Shown: positions 302 through 61,000 of the stretch, piece after piece | How the letters are laid out: each line of letters begins with the position of its first letter | Position numbering within the stretch: position 1 is the first letter of the stretch | Origin: an uncultured candidatus Porisulfidus sp. | Lineage (GTDB): Bacteria; Pseudomonadota; Gammaproteobacteria; Poriferisulfidales; Poriferisulfidaceae | Direction of reading: 5' to 3' | NCBI GenBank assembly: GCA_965116025.1 | Contig: OZ220480.1 | Location: 96,001 to 160,000, forward strand | Length of the DNA stretch: 64,000 bases | The notes under the pieces: generated by a model | What the model was told of the DNA's origin: nothing | What the model saw: the letters and a program-made list of their open reading frames with translations, nothing else | The model's database searches: none | Made by a program: the position numbers and the translations under genes

Positions 302-811
302 TCACAATAGCTTGGCACGGTACACAGGGGCCTGTGTTGCACGACGGCGTATCAACCAGAAAGGGCCAATCAACAGTCGATAAGTCCTTGACGCATACCA
401 AGTCTCCCGAAAACGCCAAAAAATGGCCCAGACTACTCTGGTGCTTATCGAAAGGTCTTCAAGGATACCGCCTGATACCTGCAACTCAAGATTATCACCG
501 TCGTTTAGCTGAAACATGTCTCGCAATCGGCAGGGAGCTATAATCTCAATAATATGCAATGGATGGCCCTTCGCGCGTGCGACCAAGCATCGCATTCCAC
601 CAATTTCACAGGCCCAGAAAAAGGCATTTTCTCCCAACATAAGCTCGACCAGAACCGGATTAAATCGGATCGGTTCATCCAGTGCCAAATTCAGGGTCCC
701 TCGCTCTGGATGCTTACCAAAAAATTTGATTAGGGGGGGGGGGGGGGGTCGCTTCGAGTAAGTGCCACGGCCACTGATCACGCGACCATGCAAAATCATG
801 AGATCAGGCAT
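302..811 (-). CDS. CTP-dependent (archaeal-type) riboflavin kinase-like domain protein (DUF120-like)
   Basis: Motifs LHGRVISGRG, RGTLNL and HIIEIIAPCRLRDMFQLNDGDNLELQV resemble the archaeal RFK pattern (GxVxSGxG...GTLN...EIIAPxxLR...LxDGD). Start uncertain (811, 799 or 910). Contains an in-frame C16 tract. Confidence 0.65.
   Translation of the reverse strand: MPDLMILHGRVISGRGTYSKRPPPPPLIKFFGKHPERGTLNLALDEPIRFNPVLVELMLGENAFFWACEIGGMRCLVARAKGHPLHIIEIIAPCRLRDMFQLNDGDNLELQVSGGILEDLSISTRVVWAIFWRFRETWYASRTYRLLIGPFWLIRRRATQAPVYRAKLL
733..748. repeat. G16 homopolymer (C16 on coding strand)
   Basis: Counted in the sequence. Encodes PPPPP and is currently in frame. Confidence 0.95.
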
Positions 812-857
812 GATGGAAATTCTGGAGGGGAGTGGGGAAAAAATAATATGGCAGGAA

Positions 858-1863
858 CTAATCGCCCGTCGTATTTCTATAAAATGGTATTTGAAGCTTC
901 CCCAGAGCATGCTCTACACATCCTAACCCCCGCCCCAAGCGCCTTACGCCTCTGACAAAAGAACGCCCACGGTCAAGAGGTACCATGCAGGCACGAAATG
1001 GTAGAGTAAGCAAACCGTTCAAGCTGATACCCAGCGCTTGAAAGCCCCCCCCCCCCCCCCCCCCCCCCCCCCCCCCCCCCCCCTAGAATTTTGGTAGCGA
1101 TAGCATCCGCTCGCGCTCTAGAAAATTCGTACTTTAGCGTCAAACGGTCCGTAGAGATAGATTCCTCTACATGAGTATCCATGGTAACGGCATAGCACCC
1201 CCCTATAGCAAGCAAGTCTTTATAAAACCTAAGATCTTCTCCTGGTGCAAAACCCAAGCTTTCATCAAAGTGGAGACCATGAGAAATCACGAATTCCATT
1301 CTGACCATCCAATAAGCTGTTCCCATGGGTATCGGGCTATCTTTATCTTCGCGATGCATCCGCTCTATCCAAGCCTCGGTCCCGCAAATTCTATCCCTCG
1401 CCAGAGCCTTTCCAATGATGTTGCAACTTCTTATGTCTACCGTGTACCGAACAATGCCACAAACCAAATCCGCATCCTTGGCTTTCTGCGTTCGGAGCAA
1501 TCCAGTTATCCAACCTGGCTCCACCCTGCTATCGTCATCGGTAAACGCCAAAAAGTCACACTCATGGTCCATGGCCATTTCGAGGGCTTTATTCCTCGCA
1601 TACGGAATTCCCAATCTAGGCTCAACCGCGAAATGAACCCGCGAAGCCGGAGCCAATCGAGATGTCGAATGCTTATCTTGGAAATTTGACACGACCTTGG
1701 CCACTCCCTCGGTTCCGGCAGGGTCGTTTTCCACGATAATGAACTGGAGCGAAGCATCGTCAGGAATCTTCAAGTCCACCCAAGATTCCAGCAGGTTAGA
1801 AAGCATGTTGGGCCGCCCGCGAGTGACCACCGCGACACCAACCTGGATCTTCTCTTCGCTCAC
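858..1863 (-). CDS. Glycosyltransferase family 2 (ExoM-like), frameshifted at a G39 tract
   Basis: VAVVTRGRP, IIVEND, EPRLGIPYARN, FLAFTDDD and GED motifs. The current frame stops at 973. An alternative frame after the tract gives a longer C-terminus, FQALGISLNGLL...FYRNTTGD*, ending at 858. Start probably GTG near 1863. Confidence 0.85.
1045..1083. repeat. C39 homopolymer (G39 on coding strand)
   Basis: Counted in the sequence. Confidence 0.95.
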
Positions 1864-57753: not shown

Positions 57754-58022
57754 AGCAACGCGACCAAAAGAAACTGTGCCCGTTTATTGCGCAACATCTC
57801 AAGAGATGTAATTATTGATACCGAACCCCCAAACAAAAGGAAAGTTTTTGATGCAGTGCCTGGATACGAAAGCCATCTCTCTGTTTTTATTATCGGTTGC
57901 ACCTCACCACTCTCCCAAAGACGATATTTGGAGAATTTGTAAGTCAGTTCATCAGCCTCTATCTTGACTCGTTCGCAGATCCAATGCAGAACATCCAGAG
58001 CCACGAGAACCCTAATCATCAT
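57750..58022 (-). CDS. Hypothetical 90-aa protein, translationally coupled on both sides
   Basis: ATGA overlap with the MTase stop (58019-58022) and with the helicase start (57750-57753). Confidence 0.45.
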   Translation of the reverse strand: MMIRVLVALDVLHWICERVKIEADELTYKFSKYRLWESGEVQPIIKTERWLSYPGTASKTFLLFGGSVSIITSLEMLRNKRAQFLLVALL

Positions 58023-61000
58023 TTCCTCCATCTCTGGAAATGTCGGTGAACGCCTGTGAGACGCGCATCGTAATCCCAACCTTCATGAAAAGTCTTAAAA
58101 ATATGGATGAGTTGATTCTCATCCAGACCATAAAGGCAGGCGACAATCGCATCAAGCTCATGGATCATGTCATTCTTCTCGTCTTCGGCAAGTGGACCAC
58201 ACTCAACTCCAACCGATTCTGCCCAAGTGGAAAAACGGTCATCTGGACTAGCCAAACGTCCAGCAAGTGCGACGACCCGTTGCCAGCGAGGATCATTACG
58301 TTCGGGACGTGGAATCGGAAAAGGATTGAGGAGAAAAAAATTAACATTCAACTCAACAAAGCACCGCGCATACCAATCCAGTGGAATCGAACTTAGTACG
58401 CCCAGCAAGAAAGATTGATCCTGCTCATCACCACGAGGCCATAGGAAATATGGTCCTTTGTTCGTGAGAAAAATCTTAGGTGGTACGAGGCAAGCGATAA
58501 TAGTCCGCTGAGCTGTTCGACTGGTGATGTCACGGAATGCAATCCTAGGCATCAAACATGGGAGAGTAGAGCGACGCATCAAGTGCTTCGTAGAAAACTC
58601 TCGATGGGGACTGTTGCGCCGACTCTTTTTTGCCTTCAAGCGTTTGCTCTGGAGCCAATCGAGCACCGGTTCCGGTTTGGCCCAAGCATAGTAATGCCCA
58701 GTATCAGGGTTCCAAATATTGAACGATTTCCCCTTGTAAACAGGCCAATAGCCGTTGGGCTGAGTTTGGCTATCAAGAGCCATCAGGTGCTTCTGCGCCG
58801 TGGCGTGGAGTTCAGTGTCAGGCCTCGACCGCCATTTTGGTTGGGATTCTCGAACACCATGAAATCCTTCTGAAGCGTGGCATCCATCTCCCGGTCGGGA
58901 CGCGTACGCCATGCCCCCCCCCCCCCCCCTCATTTAAATCAAGACGTGGTGCTTTGCGCAACTGGGCGAAAACAGCTACAGAGTCCGATTTGGGCAACAG
59001 GGGAAGCGAAGCAGTGTCACCCCAAGAAAACACTTCCTCTCGGTTAAATTTAAAGGCGCATTTTTCGATGCTTTTTTTGAACTTCTCATACGAAGAAAAT
59101 GGGCCACGAAGGTGTATTGACCTCTCCACCGGCTCTCCATGGACTAGGCAGACAAGAGCAATGGTGTATGAACTCGCGACCTCATCAAAAACCCATCTGG
59201 CACGATTGATTAACGTTGTCGCTTTGACGCTCACTGATTGGTCGAAGATAATCCGGCGAAACGCAGTCGACCCCTTTGCTGATAACACGCTACGGGGTAA
59301 CACGACACCGACATGCCCACCCTCGACAGCCGACAACCGCCAGAATCTCCAGCAAAATGCCTTGTAGAAATCTGGATCGCCCGTTCCCATTCCAGGGTAC
59401 GAACCGCCTACGAGTGCCTTACGGACCCGTTCCATTTCGTCTAGTTCCGATTCATAGATGGCGACAAGATCTGGTCGATCAGCACGTAACCGCGATTTTT
59501 CTTGCTCTTGCTTTTTTTGCGTCAAACCACGGAGGCCGGGAAAATGTCGCGCCCAAAAAGCGTGTTCCTCAACTGTAGCCTCTTGCCACGGCGGATTACC
59601 AAGGATGACATCAAAACCCGGACGGTCACGCAAAAACACTTCAGGAAAAGTGATCGGAAAATGCAATGCATGGAGACCTTCGAGTTGCTCCTTCGCGGCT
59701 TTCGCTGTGTCCATCATTTTCTTCTCGTCAGACACCCTCCCCCATTGGTCGAACGTGAACCCTTTGATTGTCGGATCCTCTGATATAGATTGCGCTGTAA
59801 TAAGATCGCAAAGACACTCAGTTTTAGCAACAGCGGTTCGGATTTCCAGCACCGCTTCACGAGCCATGGAAATATCGGCAAGAGTCGCGTCCTTGACGTT
59901 GGCAAGACGATGGAGAGGCTTCTTTGCTGCGCCAAGCAATGCCTCCGCATCCACCTCGAACAATGGCAATGATGCTTCTTTAAATTTTTTTCTGATTTCC
60001 TCTATGCTTCCCACCCCAACGAGTGCATTTCCCCGAACTAGGTTATGGTCAAGAAATGAGAGTGGCAGACCGGGAATAAATGTATGGATCCAGATAGCAA
60101 GCCGGGCAAGTTGTACGGAAAGCGCATTCAAATCGACTCCGTGGATGCAACGCCGGGCAATCAGTCGACGGAGCAATTGGCTATCCTCTATTTCAAAGGT
60201 GGCAGAACCCAACTGTTGATGTGCTGCATTACGAAGCTCTTCTATATCTCTACGCACAGATGGAATCGAGTGGTCAGCAATCCAGTTAGCCATACGTTTC
60301 TCTATTCTATCGATAGCACCAATCAGGAAATGACCTGACCCCATCGCGATATCGGCCACTCGAAAATCGAAAAAATGATCTGCCACATCGGTATCGTCCA
60401 TTCGATCAAGGCAGTCAAAATGCTTATTGAGGGCGGGTTCCAAAGCTTCATCAAGCAGGTGTTCTACTGCAAAAGTCTTGGTGTAGTAGCTACCCGAAGC
60501 TTTGCGGGCGCCCGATTTATTATGGATATAAATCTCTCCACAAGGAACGACAACATCGTCTCCATTTCGAGCGGGCTTGTAATTTCCCCTCTGGTCCAGT
60601 GCCAAATCAGTTTCAGCGAGTGCAAGTCCAGATTCCAGTAACCCCTCGTAAATGGTTCCGAATTCGCGAACACCAAGTGACCGAAAATCGACTGGTCCCT
60701 GGACTCCATCGGGTGTTTCAATCACCAGAAGTTTCCGCAAGGCTGTTTCGAATGTCTTGTTAGACAACGAAAGGCTTGCAAGGGAGGCTCCAGTAGCAGA
60801 AATGTCCGAATCATCGGAAAAAAGCCCTCCATCGTAAGCGGGAACACCCCACTGCGGATTGCCATCAGCAACGGCCCGAAACAGTAATACCGTTTCTTGC
60901 CAATGGGTATCACCATCAGCTATCGGAGCATCCTTCTCGACATACTCGACGAGCTCCTGAGCTTTCTTTTTCAGTGAGCGCCTCCGATACGAATCATTGG

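Follow-up and report, generated by a model that had tools for sequence, protein, structure and literature searches.

The stretch of DNA analysed here (the window, 64,000 nucleotides, nt) corresponds to G000:C1:96001-160000, i.e., to positions 96,001 to 160,000 of the single-contig genome of an uncultured candidatus Porisulfidus sp. (G000; 2,018,984 bp, 62.7% GC). It contains exactly four homopolymers of at least 8 nt, which read G16, C39, G29 and C16 on the forward strand (tracts 1 to 4; Table 1). An earlier note on this DNA had described four such tracts, assigned them to surface and defence genes and proposed that they constitute a contingency (phase-variation) system; our run scan of the window recovered the four tracts at the same coordinates and with the same lengths. 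The genes concerned all lie on the minus strand, with C16, G39, C29 and G16 on the coding strand, so that both bases do occur there, and the tracts said to break the reading frame are indeed three as assembled (tracts 2, 3 and 4), tract 1 being in frame. Tract lengths, and hence all ON and OFF calls given below, were read from one assembly.

Tract 3 is located at the 5′ end of a giant gene encoding an FN3-rich autotransporter adhesin of 9,606 amino acids (aa), as counted from an internal ATG that lies 22 nt downstream of the tract. This location at the 5′ end of an adhesin gene is the one given in the earlier note. Five fn3 stretches were detected in the first 1,000 aa of the protein (E-value 3.5e-53) and an Autotransporter domain (PF03797, E-value 3.8e-8) in the last 1,000 aa, and its N-terminus, MAESAGCSWKTAYRKNAAFAVAFLLALSAALA, resembles a signal peptide. 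On the other side of the tract lies a short leader open reading frame (ORF), itself preceded by a promoter-like site that agrees with the consensus at 10 of 12 positions (one site found versus 0.1 expected in shuffled sequences; this is a consensus match only). With the 29 nt present in the assembly, the leader ORF stops after 91 aa; a tract of 27 or 30 nt would allow read-through into a protein of 9,670 or 9,671 aa. As assembled, tract 3 is thus predicted to uncouple the adhesin from the leader start. The same organization is found elsewhere in the genome: five other FN3-rich proteins, ranging in size from 1,226 aa to over 2,200 aa, have a poly-C that separates the leader (MTTVLATWRVG... or MSMMT...) from the signal peptide; as assembled, three of them read through and two do not. 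The leader–poly-C–signal peptide layout is therefore common to six FN3 proteins, including the window adhesin. Inside the adhesin gene, positions 14000-22000 stand out by a GC content of 71-76% and a GC skew between -0.20 and -0.24, compared with 58-64% GC in the remainder; this part is probably a repetitive, compositionally extreme domain block.

Tract 4 coincides with the point at which a gene encoding a DNA methyltransferase, as annotated in the earlier note, passes from one frame to another. The methyltransferase domain is of the Eco57I type (PF07669, E-value 6.1e-12), and both pieces of the gene match consecutive parts of the same PADLOC profile (PDLC03620, 1378 positions), the large piece from 45 to 1100 (E-value 9.7e-241) and the small one from 1089 to 1361 (E-value 3.9e-61). 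With an Eco57I core and a profile match that the two frames together cover over its full length, the gene is predicted to encode a Type IIG restriction enzyme-methyltransferase. The tract of 16 nt ends the large piece as an ORF of 1,098 aa, and the whole gene would be read with 15 or 18 nt, giving 1,364 or 1,365 aa. Tract 4 is bridged independently by a k-mer contig of 9,130 nt from run X1, with 0 differences, and is the only tract so bridged. The Type IIG gene and a gene for an HKD+Snf2 helicase, DrmD-like, are housed in a low-GC island (53300-62100, 48-53% GC). In runs X2 and X3, the segment 53.3-59.3 kb is practically uncovered, most of it having depth 0, and for this reason the region looks like a strain-specific defence island.

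The two remaining tracts concern glycosyltransferases. Tract 2 is carried by a GT2 gene (PF00535, E-value 5.3e-9), which agrees with the glycosyltransferase assignment made previously, and has a counterpart in a paralogue 7 kb away that carries G30 at the matching position. Downstream of the tract, both paralogues have a tail of 60-61 codons (ALGxSLxxLLxLPF...DRGRSFVR...TTGD, followed by a stop) that is open and alike in one frame only; in the window gene, this frame corresponds to ORF 858..1022(-) and ends at the stop 858-860. With 39 nt, the predicted protein has 332 aa and a non-conserved tail of 23 codons; with 38 or 41 nt it would have 370 or 371 aa and the conserved tail. As assembled, tract 2 thus appears to cut off the conserved GT2 tail.

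The ORF containing tract 1 had been described as an RFK-like gene. The PF01982 match supports this label for the domain, but the domain turns out to be the N-terminus of a GT4 glycosyltransferase fusion: an intact paralogue and the orthologue in the related genome G008 encode proteins of 534-549 aa with Glycos_transf_1 domains, and in tblastn the window copy retains only residues 2-179 of the paralogue. The ORF is thus, judging from these alignments, a remnant of an RFK-like/GT4 fusion gene truncated by an IS110 insertion sequence (IS) element. The truncation point is marked by a 55-nt repeat adjoining the start of the IS110-type ORF; this repeat has at least 10 sites in G000 and is also found in genus relatives. 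The tract of 16 nt leaves an ORF of 169 aa, and one base more or less would reduce it to 26-32 aa. At the position of the tract, the orthologues of G003 and G008 have no run (IKSFSAE and IKGFSAE, respectively), and the paralogue in the same genome has QDSPPPLS, coded by the C/T-rich TCTCCTCCCCCTCTCTCC, a kind of proto-tract. Since the orthologues lack a run, the paralogue is C/T-rich and the window copy has C16, tract 1 arose recently in this loop, with loop length kept. The birth of a tract, from no run through a C/T-rich proto-tract to C16, is traceable here.

Table 1. Features of the window and tract-bearing genes elsewhere in the genome (positions refer to the window).
Feature	Position	Strand	Description
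IS110-type transposase ORF start	2-256	-	PF01548, E-value 3.6e-5
55-nt repeat	252-307	-	Adjoins IS110-type ORF start; truncation point of RFK-like/GT4 gene
RFK-like ORF	302..811	-	CTP-dep_RFKase PF01982, E-value 2.9e-8
Tract 1	733..748	-	C16 on coding strand (G16 on +); encodes RPPPPPL in a loop of the RFK-like domain
GT2 glycosyltransferase gene	858..1971	-	PF00535; 973-1971 as assembled
Tract 2	1045..1083	-	G39 on coding strand (C39 on +); encodes 13 Gly near the GT2 3′ end
FN3-rich autotransporter adhesin	12727..41547	-	9,606 aa from internal ATG at 41547
Tract 3	41569..41597	-	C29 on coding strand (G29 on +); between leader ORF and signal peptide
Leader ORF	41598..41741	-	MRQRSIKL...SAWVGL, 48 codons; ATG at 41741-41739
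Promoter-like site	41786..41813	-	TTGTCG-16 nt-TATAAT, ~40 nt upstream of leader ATG
HKD(PLD)+Snf2 helicase gene	54400..57753	-	PLDc_2, SNF2-rel_dom, Helicase_C; C3a139 'HKD+Snf2', E-value 7.6e-55; DrmD-like
Type IIG restriction enzyme-methyltransferase gene (predicted)	58019..62114	-	Frames 58818-62114 (1,098 aa) and 58019-58933 (304 aa)
Tract 4	58914..58929	-	G16 on coding strand (C16 on +); frameshift point in Type IIG gene
Type I secretion ABC gene			Tract at gene end, 17 nt before HlyD-like start
Type ISP enzyme			G15, split at helicase
Type I methyltransferase-like gene			G22, split
DUF499/HmaC ATPase			G29, split
DndC			G22, after short leader
PDC-M33A GHKL ATPase			C20, after GTG start
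Type III Mod			C23, in frame
GmrSD-family gene			G20, candidate promoter spacer, TTGACA-A-G20-TATAAT
RTX-repeat gene			G15, candidate promoter, TTGACA-G15-TATACT
Unclassified, 482-aa ORF			G24, in frame; ORF without family match
Unclassified, intergenic			C19, ~290 nt before aminotransferase gene

Extending the scan to the whole genome revealed 45 G/C runs of 15 to 39 nt (mean 21.8, median 22), with none of 9-14 nt, nine of 8 nt and 62 of 7 nt; the longest A/T run has 10 nt. Under a first-order model, the 2.02 Mb of G000 should contain only 0.004 G and 0.006 C runs of at least 15 nt, versus the 45 observed, and about 27 runs of at least 9 nt, where the range from 9 to 14 nt is empty. This empty range, together with the excess of long runs over the model, indicates that mid-length runs are avoided and that the long runs form a distinct class. 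The G/C runs of 7-8 nt also fall off faster than the model expects, and mid-length G/C runs seem to be selected against outside contingency loci. Every tract consists of a single codon (GGG or CCC), and the 45 lengths are spread over the three residue classes modulo 3 (13, 14 and 18 tracts). Once the two promoter tracts, the tract at the type I secretion system junction and the intergenic tract are set apart, 41 intragenic tracts remain, 10 in frame and 31 out of frame, compared with one third in frame expected by chance (P = 0.15). A function as protein linkers (poly-Gly or poly-Pro) was rejected, since only a minority of the intragenic tracts keep the frame and no tract is built from more than one codon.

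The genes carrying these tracts belong to a narrow range of classes. The confinement to surface and defence genes seen in the window extends to 43 of the 45 tracts, which lie in or before autotransporter/adhesin, secretion/RTX, glycosyltransferase or restriction/defence genes; it does not hold for the two unclassified tracts of Table 1. When paralogue families are counted once, 17 of about 19 loci fall into the surface, secretion, glycan or defence classes, an enrichment with P ~1e-12 if these classes have a background share of 15% and 1e-7 if they have 30%, both shares being assumed and not measured. None of the 45 tracts is located in a housekeeping ORF, and the housekeeping genes identified in the window itself (encoding Dxs, LysS, a RF-2-type release factor, an aspartokinase and a Cys/Met PLP enzyme) are all tract-free, as the earlier note had remarked. 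For LysS, the best 80 of 600 protein matches were gamma- and betaproteobacterial sequences of only 55-62% identity, with no close relative among those returned. A 'terminase-like' label initially given to an ORF at 808,735 was dropped, the ORF having no Pfam or PADLOC match. The tracts occupy four kinds of position: the junction of leader and signal peptide, the inside of restriction or defence genes, the region before the GT2 tail, and the interval between -35 and -10 boxes. Among the split defence genes, the two halves of the Type ISP enzyme on either side of its tract together match one profile from end to end.

More than half of the loci belong to a single family of autotransporters, in which 24 of 25 full-length paralogues have G(n) at the identical codon position, with G on the coding strand in all 24. 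The proteins have 1,036-1,166 aa, apart from one member with a frame of 889 codons. With a PF03797 barrel, scored on the family member L018 (E-value 6.6e-28), and a predicted N-terminal signal peptide (recognized, like all signal peptides here, by visual inspection of the translated sequence), they can be classified as putative Type Va autotransporters. The 5′ region follows a regular layout, consisting of a TATAAT box, about 40 nt, a ribosome-binding site and ATG, a leader of ~20-26 codons (MTKNLSVSEIRAALRGASSSSRI and variants), G(n) and the signal peptide, the tract being followed by HSLRFLTVLAGF... or HSLRFLTVLAGFTA... Read-through is possible only if n is a multiple of three, the two other frames being closed within 1-6 codons: n = 1 mod 3 leads to a stop at GCA-TAG and n = 2 mod 3 to a stop five codons later. 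The assembly places four of the 24 genes in frame. The other 20 are out of frame, yet their bodies are fully open, and in all 24 the frame downstream of the tract runs for 889-1,166 codons without internal stops. Identity among the paralogues reaches 92% in the 30 nt after the tract, compared with 76% in the 30 nt before it and ~60-70% further in, a pattern that could be due to selective constraint on the signal peptide or to gene conversion acting locally, and tract lengths differ in six of seven paralogue pairs with similar flanks. Altogether, the cassette of leader, tract and signal peptide is present in 30 copies in G000. The 25th paralogue (G000:C1:508081-510720, minus strand) has the leader and the signal peptide without the homopolymer and may be an always-on copy.

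Two tracts, both outside the window, form the spacer of a candidate promoter, in front of the RTX-repeat gene (spacer of 15 nt) and the GmrSD-family gene (spacer of 21 nt), the norm being 16-18 nt. A consensus promoter scan restricted to spacers of 16-18 nt detected none at the RTX-repeat site as assembled.

Long G/C runs are not limited to this genome. Runs of at least 15 nt were found in 11 of 15 genomes of the same genus, as one would anticipate if the earlier proposal applied to sister genomes, and in 9 of 12 genomes of a second family, with none in the 12 genomes of a small-genome family or in the single genome of a fourth family; these counts are upper bounds, because draft relatives show artefact-like poly-G. 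In the one-contig relatives G015 and G013, a tract of 14-24 nt immediately precedes the signal peptide region of a large ORF at four of the six loci examined, and two of these four genes encode autotransporter homologues. The autotransporter matches in relatives are only 31-36% identical, and the genes are not orthologous to those of G000. Both mutS and mutL, the presence of which the earlier note had considered worth checking, are present in G000 as open frames (871 and 583 aa, respectively); since they are intact, the tracts cannot be regarded as a by-product of lost repair.

Taken together, these observations make it likely that the four tracts of the window belong to a genome-wide set of hypermutable simple-sequence contingency loci. 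The phase-variation system proposed in the earlier note thus gains support from the genome scan, from the sister genomes and from the mismatch repair genes. In the four window genes, the 24 autotransporters, the five other FN3 genes, the split defence genes and the two candidate promoters, the repeat sits inside a frame or a promoter where a change in length is predicted to alter expression, and most tract genes are OFF as assembled yet otherwise intact, the gene of tract 1 with its IS truncation being an exception. In such a system, slipped-strand mispairing at replication would add or remove bases of a tract, and each gene would flip between ON and OFF independently and reversibly. A population would then hold many combinations of adhesins, surface glycan and restriction or methylation specificities, a mixture that could spread the risk against host recognition and phages. 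Tracts of 15-39 nt should make for very frequent switching, to which RNA polymerase slippage may add a non-heritable mixing of frames.

Several observations weigh against contingency loci. No variation of tract length within a population was seen in the k-mer contigs of the three public runs, all from one study, in which the stretch 41559-41610 around tract 3 is masked. Same-locus tracts from other strains were not found, whether in the 15 genus genomes, in metagenome scans or in protein searches: the DNA of the adhesin 5′ region had no match outside the homopolymer itself in any of the 15 genomes, which are too distant for such a comparison; flank–gap–flank patterns gave no metagenome match for the autotransporter family or for tract 3; all 13 protein matches to the first 260 aa of an in-frame autotransporter came from G000 itself; and a second protein search (of the 'shorter' type) gave none among 7,451 candidates. 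Tract 4, the only one bridged in k-mer contigs, shows the single length C16 at a depth of 38. The internal ATG and the complete signal peptide that follow tract 3 mean that the adhesin may not be fully off, and the gene of tract 1 is already truncated by an IS, so that its switch may have no function left. Exact lengths and ON or OFF calls depend on a single assembly of unknown chemistry, and long homopolymers are error-prone. Finally, the drafts G002 and G005 (loci L023, L028, L035; L026) contain clusters of interrupted poly-G/C blocks next to N gaps and at contig ends, which look like sequencing artefacts that inflate the homopolymer counts there.

These last points raise the question of whether the tracts of G000 could themselves be errors of sequencing or assembly, the true tracts being short or all in frame. 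Long homopolymers cause errors on every platform, poly-G blocks of the kind just described do occur in drafts, and the contigs of runs X1 and X2 end at both sides of tract 3. An artefact would not, however, hit the same codon in 24 paralogues, the exact gap between -35 and -10 boxes, and only surface and defence genes; tract 4 is exactly reproduced by an independent k-mer contig, clean tracts exist in one-contig relatives, and the lengths are spread over the residues modulo 3 instead of being centred on 0. We therefore regard this explanation as extremely unlikely, although errors of 1-2 nt in single lengths are quite possible and would change individual ON or OFF calls without affecting the overall picture. 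Very unlikely, in our opinion, is a mutational decay in which a bias towards expansion of G/C runs lets tracts persist in dispensable genes, the frameshifted genes being young pseudogenes. The small genome (2.02 Mb) with its IS elements, the truncated gene of tract 1, the 31 of 41 intragenic tracts that are out of frame and the near absence of cover over the Type IIG island in two other samples would all fit such a decay. Yet the bodies of all 24 autotransporters are open over their entire length with no second lesion, the split enzymes are otherwise complete, conservation within the family is highest in the 30 nt that follow the tract, and the position of the tract is identical in 24 paralogues and recurs in other species.

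Two further explanations accept the tracts as functional, without heritable counting of their length. They could act as structure-forming elements, a G-quadruplex or i-motif stalling replication or transcription or initiating gene conversion between adhesin genes. According to the textbook rule, 15 nt is the minimum for four G3 blocks separated by one-base loops. This is exactly the length of the shortest tract, none having 9-14 nt; in addition, no part of the autotransporter family is more homogenised than the tract flanks, and G is on the coding strand in 24 of 24 members. The six adhesins with C, and not G, on the coding strand speak against such a role, and length counting fully explains a placement that is sensitive to frame and spacer, and we consider such a role quite unlikely. 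Alternatively, frames could be mixed at the level of RNA: the polymerase would slip on the tracts and produce all frames whatever the length of the DNA, so that the tracts would be non-heritable attenuators permitting low-level expression of all members. In E. coli, transcriptional slippage is established for A/T runs, with a much weaker effect of G/C runs, and the two promoter-spacer tracts would be left unexplained. The reading frames do look unselected (10 of 41, P = 0.15), which fits a situation in which the frame of the DNA matters little; the tracts of 15-39 nt are far above the 9-10 nt dominant in Campylobacter (PMC6321876), and a rescue by poly(A) slippage has been described in Buchnera (PMC2831843). 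We consider RNA-level mixing somewhat unlikely as the main role of the tracts, and contingency loci that switch through tract length remain our preferred interpretation.

Most work on simple-repeat phase variation concerns a small number of animal pathogens, in which the tracts measure ~7-13 nt. Campylobacter is AT-rich and is devoid of MutS/MutL-type mismatch repair, unlike G000 with its 62.7% GC and its mutS and mutL genes. Work on Campylobacter distinguishes translational (intragenic) from transcriptional (intergenic) phase variation and counts 18-39 phase-variable genes in C. jejuni, with poly-G tracts that are mainly 9G (52%) or 10G (30%) (PMC6321876). The C. jejuni phasome described there resembles the present set in its many independent G/C homopolymers, mostly intragenic with few intergenic ones, which affect surface, glycosylation and restriction-modification genes, and in ON fractions close to neutral drift (PMC6321876). 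It differs by its tracts, mostly of 9-10 nt, compared with a median of 22, a minimum of 15 and a maximum of 39 in G000. In G000, moreover, over half of the loci correspond to one autotransporter family.

Autotransporters with intragenic poly-C tracts are known in Neisseria meningitidis, namely NalP and MspA. Phase-variable autotransporters have been reported from N. meningitidis and, with poly-G tracts, from Campylobacter (PMC7168839, PMC5953494). Those and the G000 genes are alike in being Type Va genes with a homopolymer in the 5′ coding region; by comparison, the G000 tract is peculiar in being fixed between the leader and the hydrophobic core of the signal peptide, in recurring in 24 paralogues and in being about twice as long. 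Variation of promoter spacers is known for Bordetella fim and Neisseria opc, and also for porA. In the case of porA of N. meningitidis, phase variation operates via a poly-G tract in the promoter (PMC3639595). The two candidate promoters of G000 share with it a homopolymer between -35 and -10, the length of which sets promoter strength in porA; they differ in serving GmrSD-family defence and RTX-repeat genes and, for the 21-nt spacer, in being 4 nt off the optimum. Phase-variable Type III and Type I methyltransferases define the phasevarions of Haemophilus, Neisseria and Helicobacter. G000 likewise has Type III Mod, Type IIG, Type ISP and Type I methyltransferase-like genes with repeat tracts, and most of its tract-bearing restriction or methylase genes are OFF as assembled.

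Outside phase variation, the poly(A) genes of Buchnera (PMC2831843) also combine many long intragenic homopolymers with a possible mixing of frames at the RNA level. However, they involve A/T runs of ~8-10 nt in many kinds of genes of an AT-rich decaying genome, whereas G000 has G/C runs in contingency-type genes only. A survey of 99 genomes found poly(G)/poly(C) to be generally under-represented, with Thermus as the only case above 50% GC to have an excess of 7-8-nt runs (PMC2831843). A literature search in titles and abstracts retrieved no paper dealing with G/C tracts of at least 15 nt or with sponge symbionts that undergo phase variation. The mechanism of the system is thus a known one, and its novelty lies in tract length and scale: it differs from known systems by the length of the tracts, by the empty 9-14-nt range with a floor at 15 nt, by its occurrence in a high-GC genome with mismatch repair genes and by the 30-fold cassette. 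It is conceivable, though unlikely, that the phasome of this lineage, with its unusually long tracts, its 15-nt floor and intact mismatch repair, relies on a length-keeping process of its own, which would hold the tracts far above the lengths known from other phase-variable bacteria, or on a mechanism in which G-quadruplexes, i-motifs or RNA polymerase slippage set expression and drive recombination among the 24 paralogues, in place of simple heritable length counting.

A few additional features were observed in the window and the genome. Next to the low-GC island, positions 51900-53300 are covered in each of the three runs at a k-mer depth 4-10 times as high as in their surroundings and contain an ORF of 447 aa (51913-53256, plus strand) with no Pfam match; this segment is probably a multicopy element or a gene family. 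Further upstream (49260-50462, plus strand), a gene encodes a fusion of an N6_N4 DNA methylase and an HNH endonuclease domain, and joints and loose contig ends at 49290-49441 in all three runs suggest that the 5′ end of this gene varies between strains. Cumulative GC skew locates the replication origin of G000 at around 0.70 Mb and its terminus at around 1.70 Mb; by hand count, the leading strand is the G-rich tract strand in 32 of the 45 cases, a figure confounded by gene orientation.

For genome annotation, the consequence is that gene callers will label most tract genes as pseudogenes or place their starts after the tract. What sets the system apart is the occurrence of 45 loci in a 2-Mb high-GC genome endowed with mismatch repair, tracts about twice the known length and a regular promoter–leader–tract–signal peptide design. 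If switching is confirmed, the 24 paralogues with their graded tract lengths would provide a natural test bed for the relation between tract length and the rate of switching or slippage, long G/C tracts would be seen to persist despite MutS and MutL, and stochastic variation of surface and defence would be part of the biology of sponge symbionts.

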